DNA of 64,000 nt, from contig JANWIW010000036.1 in assembly GCA_025449695.1 (NCBI GenBank), positions 320 to 64,319 of the forward strand, written 5' to 3'. This document shows, in pieces, positions 10,525 to 53,236 of the stretch. Both the position numbers and the translations under genes were made by a program. Origin of the DNA: Minisyncoccota bacterium. GTDB lineage: Bacteria; Patescibacteriota; Minisyncoccia; UBA6257; 2-01-FULL-56-20. The notes under the pieces are model-generated. The model saw nothing but the letters and a program-made list of their open reading frames with translations. It did not search any database and was not told the origin of the DNA. The stretch's first letter is position 1. The number at the start of each line of letters is the position of its first letter.

Positions 10525-10956
10525 ATGAAAATAAAAATTATCCGCGTGGATAAGTCGCTGCCTCTGCCGGAATACAAGACCGCCGGCGCGGTTGCGTTCG
10601 ATCTGTACTCCCGGGAGAAGGCCACTATCCCGGCGGGTGCCATCGTGGTCCTGCCCTCCAACTTCATCATCCAGGTGCCGGAAGGCTACGCGCTCATGCT
10701 GGCCTCGCGCAGCAGCACGATGAAGAAGGGCCTCTTCATGGTGAACGGGGTAGGCATCATTGATCAGGATTTCCACGGCCCCGAGGACGAGTTCAAACTG
10801 CCCATGCAGAACTTCACCAATCTGCCGGTGACCGTGGAGCGTGGCGAGCGCATCGGTCAGGGAATCATCCTCCCCATCATCAAGCCGGAATGGGAGGAAG
10901 TAGAGAAGATCAAGGACGAATCGCGCGGCGGCTTTGGCACGACGGGCGATCTCTGA
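10525..10956 (+). CDS. dut: dUTP diphosphatase
   Basis: MKIKIIRVDKSLPLPEYKTAGAVAFDLYS ... GFGTTG: dUTPase motifs 1-5. Begins 6 nt after the deaminase stop, so the two form an operon. Confidence 0.9.
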   Translation: MKIKIIRVDKSLPLPEYKTAGAVAFDLYSREKATIPAGAIVVLPSNFIIQVPEGYALMLASRSSTMKKGLFMVNGVGIIDQDFHGPEDEFKLPMQNFTNLPVTVERGERIGQGIILPIIKPEWEEVEKIKDESRGGFGTTGDL

Positions 10957-26374: not shown

Positions 26375-26397
26375 AACAAATATAGGGTCAGGAATAC
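26375..26397 (+). repeat. 23-bp direct repeat, copy 1 (GGGTCAGGAATACGCTCGTATAA)
   Basis: Perfect match to 26772..26794. The two copies bracket the GIY-YIG gene. Confidence 0.9.
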
Positions 26398-26415
26398 GCT
26401 CGTATAAGAGTGTTT

Positions 26416-26771: not shown

Positions 26772-26794
26772 GGGTCAGGAATACGCTCGTATAA
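26772..26794 (+). repeat. 23-bp direct repeat, copy 2
   Basis: Identical to 26375..26397. Preceded by two GC hairpins (GGTCAGCTTAGCTGACC and CCCACGCTAAGCGTGGG). Confidence 0.9.
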
Positions 26795-27886: not shown

Positions 27887-28038
27887 GATCTATCCTTTCC
27901 GGGTTTTCAACCCTGCTTTTCTGCACACATCTTACCCTAAAGTTTCTATGTTGTCAATAATTTGTATACAGCTTTGTAGTATTGTTTTTACTACACTATC
28001 CGTGTAAAAATGAGATTGTTGTAAGATTGTTTTTACAC

Positions 28039-28788
28039 ATGCTCAATCCCTCAAAACTTAAGGATTTTGGCCTCGGTGACAAAGAAGCCAGAGTTTATCT
28101 AGCGCTCTTGGAGGTTGGAGAGGCCAAAGCTCACGAGATAGCGAGTAAGGCCGGTGTAGCTCGACCGGCCGTCTACGATCTACTGAACCGACTTACCGAA
28201 GAAGGATTAGTGGGAACAATCCAAAAAAACAAAGTCGCTTACTTCGTCGCCAATAGCCCGGAGACCATACGGCGCGGGCTAGAGGAAAAGCAACGGGTAT
28301 TCGATCAACTACTGCCCGAGCTGCGATCGGCATTCAACACTACCAAGTCCAAGCCAAGAATTCTTTATTACGAGGGGGTGGAGGGCATCAAAACCGTATT
28401 TGAAGATACGTTGACCGCGCATAATAAAACACTCCTCGGCATTCTCTCAATGGAAGATCTATTTAAAACTCCGGGCAAAGAGTACATGGATGATTATGTG
28501 GCAAGGCGCGTTGCGGCCGGATACACGCTTCGCGTGATCCGCAGCAAGCCGAAAGAGGTCGGCCATGCATGGCAATCTGCCCCTGGCGAGAAGCGCGAGT
28601 TGCGTTACCCACCGGCAAGTATGGTGTTCGACATGACAACCTACATTTACGACGACAAGGTGGGCCTGATCTCAACGGAAAAAGAGAATTTTGGTTTAAT
28701 AATCGAGAGTGTGGAGTACAGTAATAATATGCGCCATCTTTTCGAGGCTTTGTGGCAGATCAGTACCGCAGATAGACCCCATCAATAA
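28039..28788 (+). CDS. TrmB-family transcriptional regulator (paralog 2 of 3)
   Basis: ARVYLALLEVGEAKAHEIASKAGVARPAVYDLLNRLTEEGLV wHTH. L-YYEGVEGIK C-domain motif shared with the other two paralogs. Confidence 0.7.
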   Translation: MLNPSKLKDFGLGDKEARVYLALLEVGEAKAHEIASKAGVARPAVYDLLNRLTEEGLVGTIQKNKVAYFVANSPETIRRGLEEKQRVFDQLLPELRSAFNTTKSKPRILYYEGVEGIKTVFEDTLTAHNKTLLGILSMEDLFKTPGKEYMDDYVARRVAAGYTLRVIRSKPKEVGHAWQSAPGEKRELRYPPASMVFDMTTYIYDDKVGLISTEKENFGLIIESVEYSNNMRHLFEALWQISTADRPHQ

Positions 28789-29525
28789 TCTGAAATGCCT
28801 TCAAATACTTTTACCGCCGGACCGGTCATATAGATCTTGCCGTCCTTCTGCTCGATTACGAGCGTTCCTCCGGGAGAAATCACCCTGACGACATTTGAGA
28901 CCAGCCCTTTAGAAAGGGCGGCAGTTGCAGCCGCGCACGCGCCGGTGCCACAGGCCAAGGTATGTCCCACCGACCGCTCCCACGTTCTTATCTCGAGGGC
29001 GTCCCTGCTTCGAACCCACACAAAATCTACATTGGTCTTGTTGGGGAATAGATCTGTCCGGTGTTCCAATGCGCGGCCTTCTTCCTGCCAGTCAAAATCA
29101 AAATTCTTTACGAAAACTACTGCATGAGGCGTCCCTATCTGCATGGCGAAGATGTCCTTATGTTCTGTTATTGCCGGAATCGCTCCCATTTCAACCCTTA
29201 CATCCTTATCCCCTATTAAAGTTGCCTTCGTTATACCTGCGCGCGTCTCAATGGCAATATCTTTCCCTGCTTTCTTAGCCACACAGCGCAACGCATTCCC
29301 GCAGGTTTCTGCCTCTGTACCGTCCGGATTGAATATCTCCATGCGGCAATTCACCCCTGTGCTGGGACCTACTATCACAAGGCCGTCCGCGCCAACACCA
29401 AATCGCCTGTTACATAGTTGCCTGGCAAGCTCGGAGGTTGCGGGTAAGCGCTTCTGATTCCCCTCGATAAGTACGAAGTCGTTACCTGCAGCCTGCCATT
29501 TCTCGAATCTCAGAGGCATGCTCAC
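28782..29525 (-). CDS. dapF: diaminopimelate epimerase
   Basis: FEKWQAAGNDFVLIEG at the N-terminus and the catalytic Cys in CGNALRC. 247 aa. Confidence 0.9.
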   Translation of the reverse strand: MSMPLRFEKWQAAGNDFVLIEGNQKRLPATSELARQLCNRRFGVGADGLVIVGPSTGVNCRMEIFNPDGTEAETCGNALRCVAKKAGKDIAIETRAGITKATLIGDKDVRVEMGAIPAITEHKDIFAMQIGTPHAVVFVKNFDFDWQEEGRALEHRTDLFPNKTNVDFVWVRSRDALEIRTWERSVGHTLACGTGACAAATAALSKGLVSNVVRVISPGGTLVIEQKDGKIYMTGPAVKVFEGISDY

Positions 29526-30487
29526 AAAGGCCGTGCCAGGAACGCATAAGCTAAGTGGCCAACTCTCTTATCTTCATTCACAAGGCTATAAGCTTCTTCG
29601 GCATTGATCTCGGCTGATCTGATGATTTCCCTTATCGTCGGTTCGTCATAGCCATCAACGGTACCAGGGACATCTATGCCGGTTCTCTCTTTAAGCAGCG
29701 CGGTGGCTTGCTCGTACTTGTAGAATGAGAATTCTATTCCGTTCTCTTTCTCGTAAATGGCGTACTGCTCCAGGAATTGGGCATCGCTCTGCATCATGAA
29801 CACGATATCCGTGCGTTCATAGGCAAGCCCTGCACGCCTAAAGCATTCCGCGATAGCACTGGTCGGCACTCTGCCACCGATCAACGTAACAAGGGAGCCT
29901 CCGGGAAGAAGTTTTTCTTTAGCCGATCGCAAAAAGCCGAGTTGCGATAAGAGAGAATACTTTTTGAGAACGTCCTCTTCGCTTTCTGCAAGGTAAGCAT
30001 ATGGCCTTGCGTCAGTAAGGGTAGTGGTCGCGAGATTTTTTTCGAGCTTGCTAGAGTCCACCATCACCAAGGGAAGATTGCCGTAAATGAAGTCAACCTT
30101 CTCAGACAAAGGGTCACAATCTCTGCCTGCTAAATAGGTGATCTTTTTTCTTTCCAAAACATCTGACGGGACATTTTTCTCAATGTTTTTTCTTATATCA
30201 GGCAGAATCTCCGGGATGATGTCTGTAATGTAAAGATTTTCTATTTCGGGAAATATATTCAGCGCCGCTATCGCGTCAATACCATTGCCACAGCCAATGA
30301 TCGCCATGGAGCGGATACTCTTCTTCTCTACGGCCAAGCGCTTCATTGCCCGGAGAGCAAGATAGAGCCAATCATCCTTAGGGTTCGCTTCCAGCCCGGA
30401 CATATCATCGGAAACGGTGATCTCACCCTTGGCATCGATATCCACGGCCGTCATGAGGGCAGAAAAATCTATCGTCGTCATGCGCAT
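29522..30487 (-). CDS. class I SAM-dependent methyltransferase
   Basis: Motif I AIIGCGNGIDAI followed by an acidic beta-2 end (YITDI). 4-nt overlap with dapF. Confidence 0.6.
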   Translation of the reverse strand: MRMTTIDFSALMTAVDIDAKGEITVSDDMSGLEANPKDDWLYLALRAMKRLAVEKKSIRSMAIIGCGNGIDAIAALNIFPEIENLYITDIIPEILPDIRKNIEKNVPSDVLERKKITYLAGRDCDPLSEKVDFIYGNLPLVMVDSSKLEKNLATTTLTDARPYAYLAESEEDVLKKYSLLSQLGFLRSAKEKLLPGGSLVTLIGGRVPTSAIAECFRRAGLAYERTDIVFMMQSDAQFLEQYAIYEKENGIEFSFYKYEQATALLKERTGIDVPGTVDGYDEPTIREIIRSAEINAEEAYSLVNEDKRVGHLAYAFLARPL

Positions 30488-30609
30488 AGTCTAATTTTTC
30501 ACGCAAATCTGTAAATTTTCTTATTACAGCGCGGCCACAATTTGACAATAAAACCAATAAAATCTATGTTTATTAGTATCTTCTGTGTAAGTAACTAACT
30601 TACGACTTT

Positions 30610-31389
30610 ATGAACAAGATTGAAGAAATCCTTAAAAACCTTGAGTTGAACGAGAACGAGCGAAAGATCTTCTTAGCTTCTCTGCGCATCGGCTTGGCCC
30701 CAATAAGCCAGGTGGCACGCGAGGCCGGCCTTGGCAGGACATATGCCTATGAGCTGGTGGAGCAGTTGAAAGAAAAAGGTCTGCTCGCTGAAACTGAGGA
30801 GAAGGGTGTGCGAAAAATAGAAACTCTCGACTATGAAGGGGTCTTGGCCTATATCGGCCGGAAGCAGCGGGATATGGAGATCGTGGCAAGAGCCCTGATA
30901 AGGTCGGAGAAGGATTTCAAGGCTGCCCGCGCGGGGGTTCCGAGCAAGACGAAGGTTCGCTTTTTTGAAGGAGTCGAAGGAATAAAGAGCATCAACTCAG
31001 AAATCAGGAAAGACCTTGAAAAGCTGCGCCATCCCTATAAGTTTCACGTTGTGTTTTCGGCAGATCGCATGGAATCTGTCCTGCCGGGATGGATAGAACA
31101 GAACCAGCACATTTATTATGAACCCCACATGCGGAAGTACGCGATTGTAAGCGGGACCCCCTTGCTTCAAAAATTCATGGAGCAGGTACGGAACCGCGAA
31201 CAAAGAAATTTCTTTTCTAAAATATGGCCGAGCAGTAAAACTGAGTTCCCCACCGACACCTTGTGCTGGTTAGATAAGTTGGCCTATCTTGATATGGAAG
31301 GTCATCCTTCGGGCATAATTATCCAAAACAAGGCTATCGCGGACACCTTCGTAATGTGGTTCGAGCAGATGTGGACCAGCTTACGCTAG
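30610..31389 (+). CDS. TrmB-family transcriptional regulator (paralog 3 of 3)
   Basis: ERKIFLASLRIGLAPISQVAREAGLGRTYAYELVEQLKEKGLL wHTH. RFFEGVEGIKS C-domain. Confidence 0.7.
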   Translation: MNKIEEILKNLELNENERKIFLASLRIGLAPISQVAREAGLGRTYAYELVEQLKEKGLLAETEEKGVRKIETLDYEGVLAYIGRKQRDMEIVARALIRSEKDFKAARAGVPSKTKVRFFEGVEGIKSINSEIRKDLEKLRHPYKFHVVFSADRMESVLPGWIEQNQHIYYEPHMRKYAIVSGTPLLQKFMEQVRNREQRNFFSKIWPSSKTEFPTDTLCWLDKLAYLDMEGHPSGIIIQNKAIADTFVMWFEQMWTSLR

Positions 31390-31396
31390 TGCCTAT

Positions 31397-31801
31397 CTAC
31401 GACCAAAGAGAGAACTTCTTGGTCAGTTCATCAAGCGTACTTTTCTCCCCAACAATGCAGATGCCATAATACTCTAGTTCCAGCTCAGGGGTATCCTTGG
31501 ATCGCTCAACTTGCTCTTCCCATCCTCCAACTGTCATGGCGCTAGTAAACGACGCGAAAGGAATGCCTTTCTCGACACAAACATTACGAAGCGCCCGTAT
31601 CTTGTTGGAGTTATCGGCCCGGAGAATGATGTAAGGCCACTTCGAGGCCATGTGCATGCCTCCATCCTTGTCTGCATAGCTTATGACGCCCATATCAACT
31701 TCTGGATGCGAGTTCACTAGGCCCACTGTCATGTGAGCTAAGGCGTTCATTATTTTACCTGTTTCAATCTTCTTATTTAGAACGGCGACGAATTTAGTCA
31801 T
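31397..31801 (-). CDS. DUF2000-like small protein (134 aa), last gene of the AT-rich operon
   Basis: MTKFVAVLNKKIETGKIMNALAHMTVGL resembles the start of DUF2000 family proteins. Recalled from memory, not verified. Confidence 0.4.
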   Translation of the reverse strand: MTKFVAVLNKKIETGKIMNALAHMTVGLVNSHPEVDMGVISYADKDGGMHMASKWPYIILRADNSNKIRALRNVCVEKGIPFASFTSAMTVGGWEEQVERSKDTPELELEYYGICIVGEKSTLDELTKKFSLWS

Positions 31802-31825
31802 GATGATGTAGGTTCTTTGAGAAGT

Positions 31826-32959
31826 TTAGGGCATAGTTGGTATGAAATCGGCATCATCGAATGGATAGTAGCGATTTACGTAAACATTGTTCACAACAAT
31901 TTTTCCTTCTGTCTGTATATACTGCAAAGATATCTTCAGTTTTTTTTCTTCGTCTGCTCCGCGCATGCTTCTCATAAAGCCCGATTCGTAAGCGGTAACT
32001 CTGTTATAGATCAACCCCTTTTCACGCTCTTGAGTTTTACGTTGGATTACCTTGAGGCCTACATCAACATTAAAGATTCCTGGAGAATCTTCGCGGATAT
32101 CGAGTATGTTAAGTCCTAGAAAATCATATCCTCCTTTTACTAATTGGTCATCGGCAGTCTCTCCGAAAAAACTCATTTGTGTTCTAGATGCGTGCGCCCA
32201 AAAGTTATCTCTGCCTGGGCTTGTGACCAAAAGAGTATTTACCTGTAGCATAATTTCTCCGATTTTCCTTTTTATCTCATCTTCAACTAATGAGTGCTTT
32301 CTTTTCAACTCAAGATTTAAAACCAATTCTTTATCCAGATATTCTTTTAATTCGGGCAGGGTGCTCAAGATAGTAAGGCTGTTCTTTGAAAAAACTGCGA
32401 ATTCTTGGCTCAATTCGTCTACTTTAAAATCTTCTGTGTTATTTGTACAAAAAATATAGTGGCTTTCTTTATTCTCCTTAACATCGGCAAGAATAGTGAG
32501 CCAAATAAGCGTATCTTTAAATCCTTTGTCTCCTTTGTTTGCGAATGGAGGTATGTGACGCAGAGATCTTTCGACTAAGTCCTTGGTAGGAATTGTCGGC
32601 AGAGGAAGCAATGCTATATCGTTAGCCTTCAAAAACTTTGTTCCCTCTTCGCGCAAAGCTTTTTCCACATCACGTTCTGAGAGTTCTATCTTGTCCTCTT
32701 TCGTAGTAAATGGCTTCAGCTTTTCAACAGCATCTTCATGTTTTGCAATCACTGCCTGTACAACATCAAATCTCTGGGCAACTCTCTCTTCCAGGACTAC
32801 CGTGGGAACTTTAACCTCTACATTGCTCTTAAGATCGTTCTCATCTAGAAATGATAAAAGATCTTCAAAAGATGTGTTGAATATCTGGTCTAGTTTCTCC
32901 TCTCTGTCACGCCACAAAAAATTAGTATCCAGTACGACATTGAATTTCTTTTTATTCAT
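31826..32959 (-). CDS. PIN-like nuclease-domain protein (DUF4935-like N-terminus) with unknown C-terminal domain
   Basis: N-terminal VVLDTNFL...E...D...D acidic tetrad pattern of PIN-like folds. 377 aa. About 35% GC. Confidence 0.5.
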   Translation of the reverse strand: MNKKKFNVVLDTNFLWRDREEKLDQIFNTSFEDLLSFLDENDLKSNVEVKVPTVVLEERVAQRFDVVQAVIAKHEDAVEKLKPFTTKEDKIELSERDVEKALREEGTKFLKANDIALLPLPTIPTKDLVERSLRHIPPFANKGDKGFKDTLIWLTILADVKENKESHYIFCTNNTEDFKVDELSQEFAVFSKNSLTILSTLPELKEYLDKELVLNLELKRKHSLVEDEIKRKIGEIMLQVNTLLVTSPGRDNFWAHASRTQMSFFGETADDQLVKGGYDFLGLNILDIREDSPGIFNVDVGLKVIQRKTQEREKGLIYNRVTAYESGFMRSMRGADEEKKLKISLQYIQTEGKIVVNNVYVNRYYPFDDADFIPTMP

Positions 32960-32976
32960 GGTTTATCTAAGGATTA

Positions 32977-33690
32977 CTATGGAGTTCGCATTGCCCCTCC
33001 TTGATGCAAATTGATGTGCATGAATCTTTCTTCCTCCACGGAAATTGTACGACTTCTAAAGACATCTTCGATAACAAAATTCTTTGTATTGAAATCTTCT
33101 TGAAATTTTTTGGCGTAGAAATTTCTCAAAATGAAACCTATAAACATATTGGGGGTAATTGGAGAGCATAGAGGAAGACGACAATCTGCATATTGAGAAA
33201 TATGAAGATGACTTCTGGGATGAGCCATATTAACAAAGCTGTGAGGCGCGTAATCAAATCTCAGGGGGACTGGTAGCTCTACCATTGCAAGCGCCGAGCT
33301 TTCACCGGAAATATCTTCATTATCAACATCCAATTCGGCTTTTGGAATATAGCAAAGCCGATGTCCAAGAAGATCATTTCCATTGAACTGGTACATCATT
33401 TGCACCAAGGCTCCATCAAAAAGCTCGAAGTTATAGTTCTTTACTTTTATCAAAGCCTTATAAGCCTCCGCATAAGGAATGCCGCCCAACAAAGGCCCCA
33501 AAGAGGACTGTCCTGCCCAGGTTATCTCAATTTGACGCCCGTTCTGGCGAGCACTTGGAAAGTTCTGATTTACAACCCATCCTTTACCAATCAAATCTTC
33601 TGTTATCTTCTTAATCTCCTTAATAACTGCGGTGGGGGTGCTAGATATCCTCATCACCAAGAAATATTTTTTTAAGTTGTTCGCGAACAT
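32977..33690 (-). CDS. hypothetical protein (237 aa) translationally coupled to the upstream helicase
   Basis: Overlaps the helicase 3' end by about 50 nt. No recognisable motif; a DUF2290-type partner is only a guess. Confidence 0.45.
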   Translation of the reverse strand: MFANNLKKYFLVMRISSTPTAVIKEIKKITEDLIGKGWVVNQNFPSARQNGRQIEITWAGQSSLGPLLGGIPYAEAYKALIKVKNYNFELFDGALVQMMYQFNGNDLLGHRLCYIPKAELDVDNEDISGESSALAMVELPVPLRFDYAPHSFVNMAHPRSHLHISQYADCRLPLCSPITPNMFIGFILRNFYAKKFQEDFNTKNFVIEDVFRSRTISVEEERFMHINLHQGGAMRTP

Positions 33691-35740
33691 CAGGATCTAT
33701 ATTTTCAAATCTAATTTTTTCCTCATTTAGGTCTTGAATCAACTTTATTAAGTTTTTGTTGCTTCGATCTATCTCTCTATGTTCGTCTGTTGTTTTCTCG
33801 CGATTAAGAACGTTAATCTTTTCCATTGCCTTAAGGGTTGGGTACGTAAAATCCAATGTAAAGTTATTGGTCTTAACTTGCTCAAACTCTTCTATTAACA
33901 TATCCATCTTTGGCCCTACTCCATAGACTCTAACCCAGGCCTTGCTACGCGTCATCGCTGTAAAAAGAATATTTCTTCGCTTTATTATATCGGACCCAAT
34001 ATAAACATATTCTGCGTTGAGAACGTAAACCATTGGGGCTTCGTTCCCTTTCACACGATGAATACCAGAAAGTGTTACAGAATTGTCTTGGTAAAATTCA
34101 TCGCGAGAACTTGTAACTCCTACTATATGAGAATTTATTTTTTTCTTAAAAAGAATTTCAGATAATGGACCTAAGGCTTGAGGAGTAATAAAAGGGTCTG
34201 CGTTAATTACCACGATATCTCTAGTTTGAAGCTCTTCCTTTCTTAAGTTTTTTATAATCTCTTCCGCAACTGATTGAATTTGCTCGGTGTTATTTTTAAA
34301 AGTCTTAAAGACTATAATATCCTCTGCCGGAGAATGTTCTTGAAGAAAGATTGGGCTCGTATCATTAGTACGCTTAAGCCTTACTTTCCTACCATATCCC
34401 AAATCACCACTTTCCACTTGATATCCAATATCTCGCCACAAGGATGGATCATCGAACATCTGGACGAGACCTTCTTGGCGATATATTCCGAAACCTAGAG
34501 CATGGGCAGTTACCAGTACGGGGGCAGAATTTCTATAGCACTTCTCAAGAATAATGTCTTCTTTCGGTTTGTTTGGCTCATTATGAAGCTCGCGCCCCAA
34601 AACTTCTTTCGTGCTGCGCATCGAGGCTTCGTTTAACTTCTGAAGTTCATCGTAAGCCCAAATCAACCTTTTCGGTTTTCTCAATATTGCATAGCAAAGC
34701 TTAAGAAAAGAATCTGAAAAATCTTGCGCTTCATCAATTAGAATAGCGTCATATGTCTCTCTGAACTCATTTTTTTGCTCTAGCGCTTTACTGCAAACTA
34801 AGTCAAATTTATCTCTTCCCCAAGAAGCTGACTCCTTTGAAGTTCGTACATCCATGAACGAAATCCCGTTGTTTACACATATTTCAAAATAGATTCCCGG
34901 AGAACTTGCGCTTCCCCAGGCATGAAGTATCTTCACTTTTTCCCAGTCAGGCTCTTCGTTTTTTTGTTCAATTGTGAACTTAGTTATCAGATCCTTGAAC
35001 TGTCCTTTCAAGGATCTGGAGCTAAATGTTACAGCTATATTCCAATCGGGATGGGTCGAATGCAAGTAAGCAGCTTTTAATGCCAGGATGATGGTTTTTC
35101 CAGAACCTGCTAATCCTCTAATCCTCTGGGGACCCTCTGCGCTCTCAATCACAGCCGCACTCTGATGTCTGTCTAAATTCGCAATTGAATTCTCTAGGTT
35201 TCTAACTTTTGCTCCGCGAGAGTCGCTTTTTACAGTTTCCGGACGCTTTATACCTGCTCTCAATTTCGTAACCGCCTGTACTACAGAAACAAGATGCCTA
35301 AATGTGGTTTCTGACACAGGAACAAGCGTCGAAGACAAAAGGTCGCGCAATCCATCATTGTTTAAAAGTATGTCGGGATCAAGATTGGCCTGGCGACAGC
35401 CAGGTGCATAAGTAACTACATTGACTTCAACCTTCAACTTCCTTTTATCAACTAATTCTTTGTACTGAAGAAGCTTAGCATTTAAGTTATTGTATATTTC
35501 ATCCCTTTTCTGTAGATGATCACTTTGAATGCTGTCTCCCTCTACCAAGTCGAATACTACAAGGCCGTATTGGTTCGAAACGAACATCGCATCTAAAACC
35601 AATGCCCCATTGGGGGTCCCTACGATTGGATAGCCGGTGTACAGTATGCCGCTCAAATCAGCAGACCTACTTCTGAAATAGTCCAACAGTAATCCCGTAG
35701 ATACAGGCTTGGTGTTCGACCCATTGATGACCTCAACCAT
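33641..35740 (-). CDS. superfamily-1 helicase (UvrD/Rep-like ATPase core) with NERD-like N-terminal domain
   Basis: Walker A GLAGSGKT, Walker B ILIDEAQD, motif VI MTRSKAWVRVYG. N-terminal YPIVGTPNGALVLDAMFVSNQYGLVVFDL resembles the NERD nuclease-related domain. Confidence 0.8.
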   Translation of the reverse strand: MVEVINGSNTKPVSTGLLLDYFRSRSADLSGILYTGYPIVGTPNGALVLDAMFVSNQYGLVVFDLVEGDSIQSDHLQKRDEIYNNLNAKLLQYKELVDKRKLKVEVNVVTYAPGCRQANLDPDILLNNDGLRDLLSSTLVPVSETTFRHLVSVVQAVTKLRAGIKRPETVKSDSRGAKVRNLENSIANLDRHQSAAVIESAEGPQRIRGLAGSGKTIILALKAAYLHSTHPDWNIAVTFSSRSLKGQFKDLITKFTIEQKNEEPDWEKVKILHAWGSASSPGIYFEICVNNGISFMDVRTSKESASWGRDKFDLVCSKALEQKNEFRETYDAILIDEAQDFSDSFLKLCYAILRKPKRLIWAYDELQKLNEASMRSTKEVLGRELHNEPNKPKEDIILEKCYRNSAPVLVTAHALGFGIYRQEGLVQMFDDPSLWRDIGYQVESGDLGYGRKVRLKRTNDTSPIFLQEHSPAEDIIVFKTFKNNTEQIQSVAEEIIKNLRKEELQTRDIVVINADPFITPQALGPLSEILFKKKINSHIVGVTSSRDEFYQDNSVTLSGIHRVKGNEAPMVYVLNAEYVYIGSDIIKRRNILFTAMTRSKAWVRVYGVGPKMDMLIEEFEQVKTNNFTLDFTYPTLKAMEKINVLNREKTTDEHREIDRSNKNLIKLIQDLNEEKIRFENIDPDVREQLKKIFLGDEDI

Positions 35741-36163: not shown

Positions 36164-36664
36164 TTAGTTTTCTTTCAGTTTCACAAGTGCCGCGTCTTTC
36201 ATGGTTGTGCTGTTCGTTTGTACCGATTGGAACAGTGTCCCAATAATAGACTTGGCATCCGCAGCATTTTGTACATTACTTTTCTGGAACAACTCCACAA
36301 TTACAGGAACAACCTCTCGGAAGTTCTCTCGGGTAATTTGGGTTGCCTTAGCAAGCAATTCGACCACTTCTGAGGTGCTATCTACATCTTTGCCAAGAAC
36401 AGAGTACAGTGGACCGAAACCCACAGCGACTTCCTCAAAGTTCAATCCTGTAAGATTTGATATATCATTTATTTTTGCCTCGGCTCGTTCCACTTCTTCG
36501 GCGGTCATCCCCGTTCTGCCTTGAAGCGTAGCTATGGCTTCTTGGCGCTGTGCCGCTCCGACAAATCCCCAGATCAAGAACGCCACCACCGCTAACAAGA
36601 TTATTCCAGTGATGATCCGGTGACGGCCAAACCAGTTCGTAGTTTTTGTATTTTCTTTATCCAT
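36164..36664 (-). CDS. membrane-anchored hypothetical protein
   Basis: Start at MDKENTKTT. One TM helix (IITGIILLAVVAFLIWGFVGAA), then a soluble domain. Confidence 0.4.
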   Translation of the reverse strand: MDKENTKTTNWFGRHRIITGIILLAVVAFLIWGFVGAAQRQEAIATLQGRTGMTAEEVERAEAKINDISNLTGLNFEEVAVGFGPLYSVLGKDVDSTSEVVELLAKATQITRENFREVVPVIVELFQKSNVQNAADAKSIIGTLFQSVQTNSTTMKDAALVKLKEN

Positions 36665-36765
36665 TATTTTATTTTGGCTTAATTTGAATCTACGGTAGCG
36701 GCGACCTTGTAGCAAAAAACCCGCCACCAGTTGGCCTTTCGGCCTGCAGGAGTTTCCCCCTGCAA

Positions 36766-37792: not shown

Positions 37793-38125
37793 ATGAAAAG
37801 TGCAAAACAGAAGATGAAACGCGAGATACTCCCATCTGACGCTGGAAGGCCAATGTCCGAAGAGGAAAAGGTAGGCTATCTCCAAAACTTGAATCCAATA
37901 TTGCGCACTATCGTTGAGGTGGGAGAGGCTATTCTTTCCTACCAGCCTTTTGTGCCTGTGGCCAACGATAGAGTAATTGGCGACTTGGATGAATTCCTTT
38001 TGCGGCAAAATATCTCCGAGGGATTCGAAAGCCTGGGAGCAGCCTACCGTGAGATCTCAACCAAATGCATGCTCCTGGCGGCGGCAGTAAATCTCTACAC
38101 AGACTACATAATTGATGAAGAGTAG
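37793..38125 (+). CDS. hypothetical protein (110 aa)
   Basis: Overlaps the next ORF. No motif. Confidence 0.3.
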   Translation: MKSAKQKMKREILPSDAGRPMSEEEKVGYLQNLNPILRTIVEVGEAILSYQPFVPVANDRVIGDLDEFLLRQNISEGFESLGAAYREISTKCMLLAAAVNLYTDYIIDEE

Positions 38126-38483
38126 CGCCGGAAGGTTCGTAATCCTTTACTGGTCAGCTCTGACAGATTTCGGACTTTCCATCCATGAAGCCGCGCTGCT
38201 CCAACTATACTGCAGCTTATCGAACAATAGGGGGTATTCCTACGCGAGCATAGTCACTTTGGCGCGGATCATGGGCCTGTCAAAGCAAACCATCCGCAAC
38301 CTCAACTGGTCGCTAAGCGAGGCAGAGCTGATAACTATCGCCTATCGGCAAGGGCAAAAGTTCAACCGCGTGGTGGTATCCTCCAAATGGAAATCTTACA
38401 TAGGCCTGGAGGGACATGGCGACGGTTCTTCCGTGCTTAACGAGGACCTTTGGGGAACGGACGAGGATGATAAAAAATCTTGA
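38112..38483 (+). CDS. winged-helix/HTH DNA-binding protein, replication-initiator or regulator-like
   Basis: YSYASIVTLARIMGLSKQTIRNLNWSLSEAELI is an HTH of the kind found in phage/plasmid replication-organiser proteins. Confidence 0.4.
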   Translation: MMKSSAGRFVILYWSALTDFGLSIHEAALLQLYCSLSNNRGYSYASIVTLARIMGLSKQTIRNLNWSLSEAELITIAYRQGQKFNRVVVSSKWKSYIGLEGHGDGSSVLNEDLWGTDEDDKKS

Positions 38484-38659: not shown

Positions 38660-40456
38660 GTGTTGGAAAATAAAAAGATGGAAAACAACAAAGTTGCGGC
38701 GATCTACTGCCGCGTCAGCACGGAGGACCAGGCCACCCATGGGATCTCCATAGAAGCGCAGGAGAGGGTGTGCGGCGAGGTCATCGAAAAAGAAGGGTAC
38801 GCCCTGCTTGAGGTCATCAAAGACGAGGGCAAGAGCGGCGGGAACCTGAACCGAGCAGGCATTAAGAGGCTAAAAGAACTCTGCGAGAAGAAGCTCATTA
38901 CCGCCGTTTTCATGGTCCATGCGGACCGCCTCTCCCGCAACACGGCCGACTACATCGGCATGATGGACTTCTTCAAAGAGAAAGGCGTCATGGTCCGCTT
39001 CGTATATCAGCCAACGATGGACCGCAGCACCGCCACCGGACAAACCATGGACACCGTGATGGCGGTGTTCAACGAACACTTCCGCCTGACCATCAAAGAG
39101 AAGACGAAGGCCACGCTCGACCAAAAGGCAAAGGCTGGGCTCTTCCCCGGCACCGCACCGTTAGGCTACATGAACGTGGACAATCCCTCGCCAACAAAGA
39201 TAGGCAAGCGCATCATCGCGCCTGACCCCGTAGGCGCTCCGTTCGTCCAGGAAGCCTTTAAGCTTTATGCCACAGGCAACTATAACGGCTTCGAGCTGAA
39301 CGAAATGATGTACCGGAAGGGTTTCCGCACCAAACGGGGCCTGAAGGTCCACCTAAGCCGCTTCTACGGCATGCTGGTGAACCCCATCTACGTCGGCGAA
39401 CTGCATTGGGGTGACATCCATCTCTCCAGGGCGCAGCACGAACCGCTTATAGACCGTGACCTGTTTGATAAAGTGCAGCGGGTCATGGCGGCGCATAACA
39501 AGCATGCCACTCGGAAGAGGAAATACACATTCCTCCTGCGAGGGTTCCTGAGGTGTCAGGAGCACCGGGACCGCAAGTACACGGCAGGACACACGGCCAA
39601 GCCCAGCGGCCTCATCTTTTCCTACTACCACTGTACGAACCGCTTCGGTTGTGCAGGCGGCTATGTGGACACGGATACACTGGAAGGTGAGGTGGCCTTG
39701 GAGTTTAAAAGACTGAAGTTTTCGGAAAGCTTCACAAACCGGGTCATCGGGAAAGCGAAGGCCGAGTTCGATGCCCGGCGCAAATCTTATGAACAGAAGA
39801 TAGCTCGCTTGGATGGCCAAAGGAATAAGCTATTTGCCCGCCGAAAGATCGCGGAGACCAAGATGTTCTCCGGCGTGCTTTCGGACGATGACTTTACCCG
39901 GATCAGGCAGGAGATAGCCGATGAGGTGAAGGTTATAGACGGCGAAAAGGCGAAGCTCGAGCAGCAGGACCACATACGGGTGGATATCGCTCAGGAGATA
40001 ACGGCTTTTATGCGAGATATGTACGCCACGTACAAAAAGGCTCATCCCATCCAGCAACGCCATTACCTAAACCTGTTCTTTGAACATCTGTTTGTCTATA
40101 AGGGCAAGGTCCAAGAGGTCGCGTGGAGCGGCCTCTTTGCTTCTTTGCTCAATTTGCAACATATAGAACAACAGAAAACCACAGGGAATATGGACCCAGT
40201 TAAAATAAGCTATGCCTGGGGTGCCCGACGGGATTTGAACCCGCAACCACTTCTGCCACAGAGAAGTGCTCTACCGTTGAGCTACGGGCACCATAGGTAC
40301 GGCGCAATTCTACCGCACCGCAGCCGATCCTTCAATCTTCATTCTGTATTAGGCCGTCTGCACTACGCTGGGGAATACGCGGAGGCCATCTGGACACCGC
40401 CTCGTGAAAAGTCCTACAATAGGAGGACTTCGCCGGACCGCACATCCCAAACATGA
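38660..40456 (+). CDS. large serine recombinase (resolvase/invertase N-domain, recombinase domain, zinc-ribbon); 3' tail reads antisense through tRNA-His
   Basis: AAIYCRVSTEDQ...S catalytic Ser region, YVGELHWGDIHLSRAQHEPLIDRDLFDKVQ recombinase domain, Cys cluster CQEHRDRKY...YYHCTNRFGC. No in-frame stop until the ATGA overlap with ftsH. The last ~80 codons lie antisense to tRNA-His and are low complexity. Confidence 0.75.
   Translation: MLENKKMENNKVAAIYCRVSTEDQATHGISIEAQERVCGEVIEKEGYALLEVIKDEGKSGGNLNRAGIKRLKELCEKKLITAVFMVHADRLSRNTADYIGMMDFFKEKGVMVRFVYQPTMDRSTATGQTMDTVMAVFNEHFRLTIKEKTKATLDQKAKAGLFPGTAPLGYMNVDNPSPTKIGKRIIAPDPVGAPFVQEAFKLYATGNYNGFELNEMMYRKGFRTKRGLKVHLSRFYGMLVNPIYVGELHWGDIHLSRAQHEPLIDRDLFDKVQRVMAAHNKHATRKRKYTFLLRGFLRCQEHRDRKYTAGHTAKPSGLIFSYYHCTNRFGCAGGYVDTDTLEGEVALEFKRLKFSESFTNRVIGKAKAEFDARRKSYEQKIARLDGQRNKLFARRKIAETKMFSGVLSDDDFTRIRQEIADEVKVIDGEKAKLEQQDHIRVDIAQEITAFMRDMYATYKKAHPIQQRHYLNLFFEHLFVYKGKVQEVAWSGLFASLLNLQHIEQQKTTGNMDPVKISYAWGARRDLNPQPLLPQRSALPLSYGHHRYGAILPHRSRSFNLHSVLGRLHYAGEYAEAIWTPPREKSYNRRTSPDRTSQT
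40217..40292 (-). tRNA. tRNA-His(GTG) with encoded G-1 and CCA
   Basis: G-1 + GTGCCCG acceptor pairing with C73, anticodon loop CTGTGGC, T-arm GCGGG-TTCAAAT-CCCGT, 3' CCA encoded. Confidence 0.9.
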
Positions 40457-52378: not shown

Positions 52379-52765
52379 TTACACATTCTGATAATGATTT
52401 ATTACACAATCTTTCTCTTGCTTAGACAGTGTTATCGTAATGGCATCCACTCGCCATCCTATCTTGTGGACGAGCTGGGGATTGCTATTGGCAAACATGT
52501 GGGCAAGTCTGTGTACCCGGTCTAACTTCTTCTGGGTAAGATGGTCCTCTGGACGAAGATATTTATGGTCACGCAAGGCTTTCACCTCGATAAATACAAG
52601 CGTCCCGTCAAAATCACGAGCAATCAGATCGATCTCGCCCAATTTTGTCCTGTAATTCTTGTGGAGAATAGTCCAACCCAGGTTTTTCAGGAAGTCGGCG
52701 GCAAGGTTTTCACCATGTTCTCCCACATTTGTCCCCAATTTGCGCTTTTCTCGATCCAGAAACAT
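52379..52765 (-). CDS. yraN: YraN family (UPF0102) endonuclease-like protein
   Basis: GEIDLIARD...TLVFIEVKAL core. The start was moved to MFLDREKRKLG because the longer ORF overlaps the divergent gene. Confidence 0.7.
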   Translation of the reverse strand: MFLDREKRKLGTNVGEHGENLAADFLKNLGWTILHKNYRTKLGEIDLIARDFDGTLVFIEVKALRDHKYLRPEDHLTQKKLDRVHRLAHMFANSNPQLVHKIGWRVDAITITLSKQEKDCVINHYQNV

Positions 52766-52804
52766 TTTTAGTATGTAATTCAACAAACACCGACCAACAA
52801 TGTA

Positions 52805-53236
52805 ATGGATTTTATGACTTATGATTATATTCGAGGACTTATAGAGAGAGAAGGCAGTTTCACGTTTTCCACAAATTACTCTCAAGAAAGAAAGGTGCCT
52901 GCCTTCTCCATATCAATGCATATCCGTGATAAAAATCTCCTAGAGGAGGCTAGGAATAGATTGGGACTCAAAAATAAGGTCTACAGCTACGATTATTCGG
53001 GCAAGGGGAGACTTGGCAAGGGGCCTATGTCATTTCTAATCGTTCGTGAGTTTTTATCGCTAAGGAATATCATCATCCCGCTTTGTTTCAATAGACTCCC
53101 AGGCAATAAAGGCCGCCAATTTGACCAATGGCTCGATAAGATCGAGATAGATCCAATGGTTTCAAACAGATTTAAAGTCCTCGCATATCTCCGAAAGCAT
53201 GGCTTTTATGAGAAACTAAGAGGAAGGTTCATTTAA
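52805..53236 (+). CDS. free-standing LAGLIDADG homing-endonuclease-like protein (single motif, 143 aa)
   Basis: YIRGLIEREGSFTFS (LAGLIDADG-type motif), then the FSISMHIRDKNLLEEARNRLGLKNKVY block typical of LAGLIDADG_1. About 40% GC in a 60% GC context. Confidence 0.55.
   Translation: MDFMTYDYIRGLIEREGSFTFSTNYSQERKVPAFSISMHIRDKNLLEEARNRLGLKNKVYSYDYSGKGRLGKGPMSFLIVREFLSLRNIIIPLCFNRLPGNKGRQFDQWLDKIEIDPMVSNRFKVLAYLRKHGFYEKLRGRFI

Follow-up and report, generated by a model that had tools for sequence, protein, structure and literature searches.

A putative Helicase+DUF2290 antiphage pair followed by a PIN_12 gene in a low-GC locus of a probable member of the Patescibacteria

Gene layout and base composition

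Within the analysed window (the whole stretch of DNA, 64,000 nt), four ORFs lie side by side on the minus strand, as the first-pass annotation had placed them and as the ORF list confirmed. From upstream to downstream these are a helicase gene (33641–35740, 699 aa), a DUF2290 gene whose longest ORF spans 32977–33690 (237 aa; Pfam and PADLOC), a PIN_12 gene (formerly DUF4935; 31826–32959, 377 aa; Pfam) and a DUF2000 gene (31397–31801, 134 aa; Pfam PF09391). All four are co-directional and tightly packed. The overlap between the helicase and the 237-aa ORF, estimated earlier at about 50 nt, is indeed 50 nt at the ORF level, and it shrinks to 14 nt if the DUF2290 start favoured by homology is taken. 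The DUF2290 and PIN_12 genes are separated by 17 nt, and the DUF2000 start follows the PIN_12 stop after 24 nt, so the close spacing was correctly described, with each spacer one nucleotide shorter than the 18 and 25 nt given before. In a promoter and terminator scan, promoter-like sites in the locus were fewer than in shuffled sequences.

The region 31397–35740 has a GC content of 40.5% as compared to 58.4% in the remainder of the window, where the first-pass annotation had given 38% and roughly 60%, respectively. The AT-richness that it attributed to all four genes holds for three of them. The helicase, DUF2290 and PIN_12 genes have a GC of 0.39–0.41 and a GC3 of 0.37–0.41, lower than in any of 42 host ORFs, whereas the DUF2000 gene (GC 0.47, GC3 0.54) is similar to its left-hand neighbours. 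The low GC is thus restricted to the first three genes, with a compositional break before DUF2000.

The helicase and DUF2290 genes

The helicase matched the PADLOC model PDLC03002 (Helicase) with 961.7 bits (E 5.5e-290), its residues 1–693 aligning to profile positions 1–704 of 707, and it also matched UvrD_C_2 and UvrD-helicase in Pfam. It is built from an N-terminal domain of ~185 aa (35186–35740) and a UvrD-like SF1 core with intact ATPase/helicase motifs; the Walker A GSGKT (residues 212–216) and the DEAQD (residues 336–340) are invariant across 76 helicase homologs. Of the NERD-SF1 helicase proposed earlier, the NERD part is weak: the N-domain of the window helicase gave no Pfam match at E ≤ 1, NERD (PF08378) included, and 5 of 71 homolog N-domains gave weak NERD matches (best E 0.0012). 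Residues D50, E67 and Q79-D80 of this domain are conserved, although neither position 66 nor position 69 holds the conserved Lys of a PD-(D/E)xK-type D...ExK motif. The domain is divergent and possibly NERD-like. A PDB search with the N-domain profile returned nothing meaningful, and the full-length helicase matched the PDB in the Walker A region of PcrA alone. PHROGs yielded generic helicase matches and nothing more for the locus, and the PADLOC models of GajB matched the helicase weakly (32.8 bits at best).

Such generic UvrD/PcrA-type similarities could point to a housekeeping function of the helicase in repair or recombination (RecD, AddAB or PcrA-like) and to a locus with no part in defence, a reading which we consider extremely improbable. 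The NCBIfam models for PcrA, Rep and RecD2 scored 16–30 bits against cut-offs of 500–950, whereas the best match, at 961 bits, was to a defence-system-specific model. Moreover, the helicase is of foreign composition, is strictly coupled to DUF2290 and, in other genomes, has restriction-modification (R-M), ATPase and integrase genes around it, with no conserved synteny with repair genes seen in relatives.

The second gene was assigned to DUF2290 by Pfam (PF10053, 136.8 bits, cut-off 25) and PADLOC (PDLC02999, 183 bits), which bears out the helicase-plus-DUF2290 link that had been offered tentatively. Homology favoured M13 (ATG at 33654) as its start, and the NCBI-derived product (P0001) has 225 aa; the junction with the helicase stop reads ATGAGGATATCTAG. 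No relatives were found when the reference genomes were scanned with the single DUF2290 protein. DUF2290 loci were identified by an alignment-based scan, and the comparative set comprised 76 helicases and 71–83 DUF2290 proteins. In 71 DUF2290 sequences, Y73, D92, G93, Q97, Y100, R144, D146, H157, H161, C170, R171, P173, P180, F186 and Y192 were invariant. Structure searches with DUF2290 gave no match.

Among 82 further loci from many phyla, 78 had the same helicase gene immediately before DUF2290, and on annotated plasmids the two genes form a strict two-gene cassette. At 29 DUF2290 loci, same-strand ORFs of at least 130 aa followed the pair; these were a mixed set of genes from defence systems or mobile elements, and HsdR occurred at 6 of the loci. 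It is most likely, from these full-length profile matches, that the first two genes represent the described two-gene Helicase+DUF2290 antiphage system, which DefenseFinder lists as Rst_HelicaseDUF2290 and PADLOC as Helicase-DUF2290; the suggestion of an uncharacterised system without a name can thus be dropped. The pair shares with the known system its gene order on the same strand, an overlapping or near-abutting junction, protein sizes of ~700 aa and ~220 aa, and intact ATPase motifs, in addition to the full-length match of both HMMs. Helicase+DUF2290 was reported to act against T7 in E. coli as two genes, from a P4-satellite hotspot (Rousset et al. 2022; PMC9122126). A published member gave phage-specific protection in PAO1, and a lactococcal homolog did not protect against the phages tested (PMC11381338).

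On the other hand, the window pair is divergent, with 35–41% identity to any member found, and its host, judged from the labels of the homologs, is probably one of the Patescibacteria rather than the Enterobacteria. The pair is not in a P4 hotspot; a serine recombinase gene that adjoins a tRNA-His gene is located ~2.9 kb away, and a PIN_12 gene is packed directly downstream. By analogy, Hachiman (HamA nuclease and HamB helicase) and Gabija (GajA and the UvrD-like helicase GajB) would follow the same two-gene logic of a helicase sensor plus a partner. The partner families differ, as Hachiman has DUF1837 and Gabija OLD/TOPRIM where the window pair has DUF2290, and HamB belongs to SF2.

The PIN_12 and DUF2000 genes

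Profile-HMM searches against Pfam, which the first-pass annotation had proposed as a check, placed the two remaining genes in PIN_12 and DUF2000, in agreement with the PIN-like nuclease and the DUF2000-like protein it had described. The match to PIN_12 (PF16289) scored 70.7 bits, above the gathering threshold. The protein carries an N-terminal VapC-group PIN domain in which the acidic residues D11, E58, D149 and D177 are conserved, and its C-terminus forms a curved beta-sheet domain of ~130 aa. It has the layout of the family, about 350–380 aa with an N-terminal PIN domain and a C-terminal alpha/beta region. A type II toxin-antitoxin of the VapBC kind was considered and rejected; the protein has 377 aa in two domains against ~130 aa for VapC, and it is preceded by DUF2290 where a small antitoxin ORF would be expected. 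No match to the PIN_12 protein was found in the plasmid database.

As the PIN_12 gene has the same deviant composition as the pair, lies 17 nt behind it and is not separated from it by a terminator-like site, it was likely co-acquired and is likely co-transcribed with the pair in this genome. The same observations, on the same strand and in three genes alike, could also speak for a lineage-specific variant in which PIN_12 was recruited as a third component, e.g. an RNase effector licensed by a helicase-DUF2290 sensor. The closest relatives of the helicase, DUF2290 and PIN_12 proteins are only 35–41% identical, and because of this there is no close sibling locus in which co-occurrence could be followed or the ancestral arrangement revealed. 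If true, the recruitment would be a new three-gene variant and a handle on the output of the system. We nevertheless regard it as unlikely, since co-occurrence was zero in both directions. In the 82 DUF2290 loci, a scan of the 10-kb flanks, with a PIN HMM made from 6 sequences that distant PIN families could escape, revealed neither a PIN_12-like nor a DUF2000 ORF, and no helicase, DUF2290 or DUF2000 was found in 84 loci of PIN_12 relatives (686 kb). On plasmids, moreover, the pair forms a self-sufficient cassette, and the published system was active as two genes.

The PIN_12 family itself occurs in many unrelated defence contexts, with DUF4935 genes described as usually monocistronic (PMC5499597), and one of its members, Cosus (Brc24), has been reported as a single-gene defence from mobile integrons (bioRxiv 10.1101/2024.07.02.601719). 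Compared at the level of the Pfam family only, the window protein and Cosus share PIN_12, the conserved acidic residues, a standalone protein and a defence context, whereas the window protein has its C-terminal beta-sheet domain and is not an integron cassette. The PIN_12 gene is probably independent of the pair and not a conserved partner. Its relatives sit inside R-M loci or adjoin DUF4238, an anti-T7 gene in published work. DUF4238 was rejected as a regular partner of PIN_12, as it recurs in one lineage only (L001, L002 and L096).

The DUF2000 protein matched PF09391 with 111.8 bits over profile positions 1–132 of 133 and showed a weak PTH2 match (E 0.006). It had 592 homologs with up to 87% identity across Patescibacteria classes. 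For six of these proteins, the surroundings were inspected and proved varied and mostly of a housekeeping type: the gene adjoined that of ribosomal protein L27, one with a B3_4 domain or one for a GNAT acetyltransferase, and never PIN, helicase or DUF2290. From its relatives and because its composition equals that of its left-hand neighbours, DUF2000 is a resident gene, conserved in the Patescibacteria, that adjoins the defence system and is outside it. Its start shortly after the PIN_12 stop leaves little space for a promoter of its own, which counts against its independence.

This packing is also what could favour the earlier view of the four genes as a single system in which DUF2000 is integral, e.g. 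as a PTH2-like antidote or effector, and the weak PTH2 similarity could hint at tRNA-related chemistry beside a PIN RNase. We find this very unlikely given the spread of DUF2000 among other gene contexts, its native composition and its absence from all 166 helicase-DUF2290 and PIN_12 loci. The first-pass annotation had itself held that absence of the combination from other defence islands would refute its proposal; it was found in 0 of the 82 DUF2290 loci and 0 of the 84 PIN_12 loci, so the claim fails. The gene neighbourhood that is conserved is that of the helicase-DUF2290 pair, not of the four-gene set. The defence reading of the first-pass annotation is retained for part of the locus, without DUF2000.

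Probable mobile-element context and proposed organisation

A large serine recombinase gene (38660–40216, plus strand) was identified by Pfam Resolvase (106.6 bits) and Recombinase (40.8 bits) and also carries a zinc-ribbon domain. Its open frame runs on to 40456, antisense across a tRNA-His(GTG) gene (40217–40291, minus strand; ARAGORN, and Rfam tRNA with 68.4 bits). The recombinase reported nearby and the presence of TrmB paralogs were both confirmed by Pfam. This was not the case for the toxin-antitoxin module: ORF 37793–38125 had no Pfam match at E ≤ 1, and HTH_36 was the sole Pfam match above threshold in ORF 38112–38483.

The three AT-rich genes lie ~2.9 kb from the recombinase gene that abuts the tRNA gene, which suggests a mobile island. 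The recombinase is likely the mobility gene of the element bearing the defence genes, and tRNA-His is a candidate integration site and right border of the low-GC region. No tRNA-derived direct repeats, terminal inverted repeats or att repeats were found at the island ends.

Taken with the comparative data, the locus is best explained, and we think with good probability, as a small horizontally acquired defence cluster consisting of a canonical Helicase+DUF2290 pair and an independent PIN_12 gene downstream, with the resident DUF2000 abutting the insertion. It is most likely a fairly ordinary small defence island and not one new four-gene system. In such a cluster, DUF2290 would be translationally coupled to the helicase through the 14-nt overlap, and the two proteins could form a complex, by analogy with the helicase-plus-effector pairs HamAB of Hachiman and GajAB of Gabija. 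By the same analogy, the ATP-driven helicase would probably sense phage DNA or replication intermediates. Perhaps the output is provided by DUF2290, with the invariant residues D92/R144/D146/H157/H161/C170/R171 as its active cluster, or alternatively by an acidic site formed by D50/E67/D80 of the helicase N-domain. Acting on its own, the PIN_12 protein would be a nuclease that depends on metal and probably targets RNA, while the PTH2-like DUF2000 would merely happen to abut the insertion.

Specialists are unlikely to be surprised by any of these results. The few defence systems seen so far in probable Patescibacteria/CPR genomes are joined by a divergent Helicase+DUF2290 member with a PIN_12 gene stacked onto it, and the repeated embedding of PIN_12/DUF4935 genes in R-M operons supports a general defence role for that family. 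The comparative set also gives candidate functional residues, namely D50, E67 and Q79-D80 in the helicase and D92, R144/D146, H157/H161 and C170/R171 in DUF2290.

The helicase and DUF2290 pair

The ORF list of the window contained the four minus-strand ORFs that the first-pass annotation had proposed as one uncharacterised defence system, encoding a helicase (33641-35740, 699 aa), a DUF2290 protein (32977-33690, 237 aa as the longest ORF), a PIN_12 protein (31826-32959, 377 aa) and a DUF2000 protein (31397-31801, 134 aa). The association with defence is real; however, the locus is not a novel four-gene system but a divergent Helicase+DUF2290 member, together with a probably independent PIN_12 gene and a resident DUF2000 gene. 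The reported overlap of about 50 nt between the helicase and the 237-aa ORF is 50 nt at the ORF level and 14 nt (junction sequence ATGAGGATATCTAG) from the DUF2290 start at M13 (ATG at 33654), which is backed by homologs and by the 225-aa NCBI-derived product P0001. The tight spacing of the remaining genes was also borne out, although the exact spacers are 17 nt between DUF2290 and PIN_12 and 24 nt between PIN_12 and DUF2000, rather than 18 and 25 nt.

The helicase matched the PADLOC model "Helicase" (PDLC03002) end to end with 961.7 bits, and the DUF2290 protein scored 183 bits against PDLC02999 and 136.8 bits against Pfam DUF2290. Thus, the helicase-plus-DUF2290 link, at first only a guess, holds, and both genes form a divergent new member of this known system. 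The system of an ATP-dependent helicase and DUF2290, named Rst Helicase+DUF2290 in DefenseFinder, came from a P4-satellite hotspot and inhibits T7 specifically (PMC9122126). Its deletion from P. aeruginosa MPAO1 had a phage-specific effect, and a lactococcal homolog gave no protection (PMC11381338). Our literature search found no mechanistic study of the system.

We compared 82 DUF2290 loci, 80 from reference genomes of many phyla and 2 from metagenomes, and a helicase of the same family was located directly upstream of DUF2290 in 78 of them. Three of the other four had no detected helicase ORF (in one, DUF2290 was at the contig edge), and the fourth had its helicase elsewhere in the locus. 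In E. coli and Nostoc, annotated plasmids carry the pair strictly as a two-gene cassette, and the genes that come next are unrelated and convergent. In several Latescibacterota genomes (loci L068, L077, L081 and L084; around position 10660), DUF2290 and the next ORF downstream overlap by 4 nt at the DUF2290 stop codon.

The PIN_12 and DUF2000 genes

The four-gene set recurred in neither the 82 DUF2290 loci nor the 84 loci (686 kb) encoding PIN_12 relatives. In the former, a narrow HMM detected no PIN_12-like ORF at up to 10 kb from DUF2290, and the latter had no helicase-family, DUF2290 or DUF2000 ORFs. When all ORFs of 130 aa or more that lie directly downstream of DUF2290 on its strand (29 loci) were searched against Pfam, heterogeneous defence and mobile-element genes were found, including AAA_15/AAA_21 ATPases, Schlafen/AlbA_2, methylases, integrases and, most frequently, the type I restriction-modification subunit HsdR (6 loci); the window's own PIN_12 was the only one in the set. 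It is very improbable that PIN_12 was recruited as a third component of Helicase+DUF2290, a reading which draws on local packing and shared composition. PIN_12 is probably an independent gene stacked on the pair, with no conserved partnership.

Relatives of PIN_12 were embedded in restriction-modification operons, which suggests a general defence association of the PIN_12/DUF4935 family. In two of the fetched loci, L103 (1196-2050) and L104 (6072-6929), they lie between hsdS and hsdR, while those in L099 (305-1423) and L101 (365-1492) are directly upstream of a methylase, the former with a Schlafen-like gene and a Res subunit nearby, and the latter with DUF6996/6997 alongside the methylase and DUF4209. 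In one lineage they adjoin DUF4238, which is a single-gene anti-T7 defence. [quoted passage not shown] The single-gene PIN_12 defence Cosus (Brc24), which we liken to the window's PIN_12 by their common domain family alone, blocks T7, and most of this activity is lost upon T12A, D14A or D96A mutation (bioRxiv 10.1101/2024.07.02.601719).

The span 31397-35740 has 40.5% GC, and the window without its 27.9-40.3 kb part has 58.4%, so the contrast between an AT-rich operon and a GC-rich core stands, whereas the value of 38% and the low GC of all four genes do not, as DUF2000 differs. The GC3 of PIN_12, DUF2290 and the helicase (0.37-0.41) is under the minimum of the 42 other long ORFs in the window (mean 0.69, SD 0.105, minimum 0.46); that of DUF2000 is 0.54 and that of its four left-hand genes 0.53-0.61, with the GC step located at about 31.8 kb. 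The five-gene block at 27982-31801 has an intermediate composition (GC 0.47-0.52, GC3 0.53-0.61), which could reflect an older acquisition or low expression. It consists of two TrmB-family regulators on either side of DapF and a 321-aa methyltransferase-like gene, with DUF2000 as the fifth gene.

DUF2000 scored 111.8 bits in Pfam, with weak PTH2 similarity. We detected 592 homologs with up to 87% identity (65-87% across Patescibacteria classes, an unusual degree of conservation), and all lineage-labelled named hits among the best 120 were Patescibacteria (Gracilibacteria, Peregrinibacteria, Peribacteraceae and Uhrbacteria). In relatives, it adjoined the gene for ribosomal protein L27, a B3_4-domain protein or a GNAT acetyltransferase, and never occurred with PIN_12, DUF2290 or the helicase in those inspected (loci L006-L011 and L092-L095). 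Its conservation, these neighbours and its composition mark DUF2000 as a resident gene adjoining the island and outside the acquired block. The protein is possibly a housekeeping enzyme of CPR bacteria with a role in translation. Since no terminator-like site was detected in the short gap after PIN_12, read-through transcription from the island into DUF2000 is plausible. On Peribacteraceae contigs, DUF2000 directly follows the ribosomal protein L27 gene.

Conserved motifs and proposed mode of action

The Walker A and DEAQD motifs of the helicase were invariant across the aligned homologs, in agreement with the annotated DEAQD-type core. Within the N-terminal ~185 residues, D50, E67 and Q79-D80 were near-invariant, with no conserved lysine at the expected (D/E)xK position. 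This domain had no Pfam hit in the window helicase; NERD was the most frequent hit among homologs, weak and in 5 of 71 (best E 0.0012), which makes a NERD-like domain plausible but unproven. The alignment of DUF2290 revealed 15 invariant residues, including D92, R144, D146, H157, H161, C170 and R171, a pattern that suggests an active or metal-binding site.

Hachiman and Gabija provide an analogy. By this analogy, the tightly coupled helicase and DUF2290 would form a complex in which the helicase may survey DNA, and DUF2290, the helicase N-terminal domain or both may deliver the output. PIN_12 would act independently as a putative metal-dependent nuclease.

The surrounding island

The helicase is followed on its right by a 423-nt spacer and a small membrane-protein ORF. 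Next come a LOOT RNA, three unassigned ORFs, of which one has an HTH_36 domain, and the large serine recombinase that had been noticed nearby. The recombinase frame (38660-40456, plus strand) runs antisense across the whole tRNA-His (40217-40291, minus strand); its recognisable domains are followed by about 80 further open codons, and its C-terminus is tentative. The region resembles an integrative element. Searches for att repeats and for terminal inverted repeats at the element were negative, and the GC content climbs gradually in the direction of the recombinase, so we only infer its borders.

The LOOT RNA (RF03000; 36733-36848, minus strand) is a full-length Rfam match (72.7 bits versus a gathering threshold of 46.4, E 2e-12) in the low-GC region. 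On the minus strand, it lies 6 nt upstream of the 187-aa membrane-protein ORF (36164-36727), which shows weak tape-measure/minor-tail similarity. Elsewhere, a perfect 23-nt direct repeat, GGGTCAGGAATACGCTCGTATAA, occurs at 26385-26407 and 26772-26794, 387 nt apart, in a low-GC patch (0.46 for 26-27 kb) with no long ORF assigned. The minus-strand ORF 52379-52885 (168 aa, GC 0.42, GC3 0.46) lies in another low-GC patch at 52-54 kb and may represent a second, small acquired segment.
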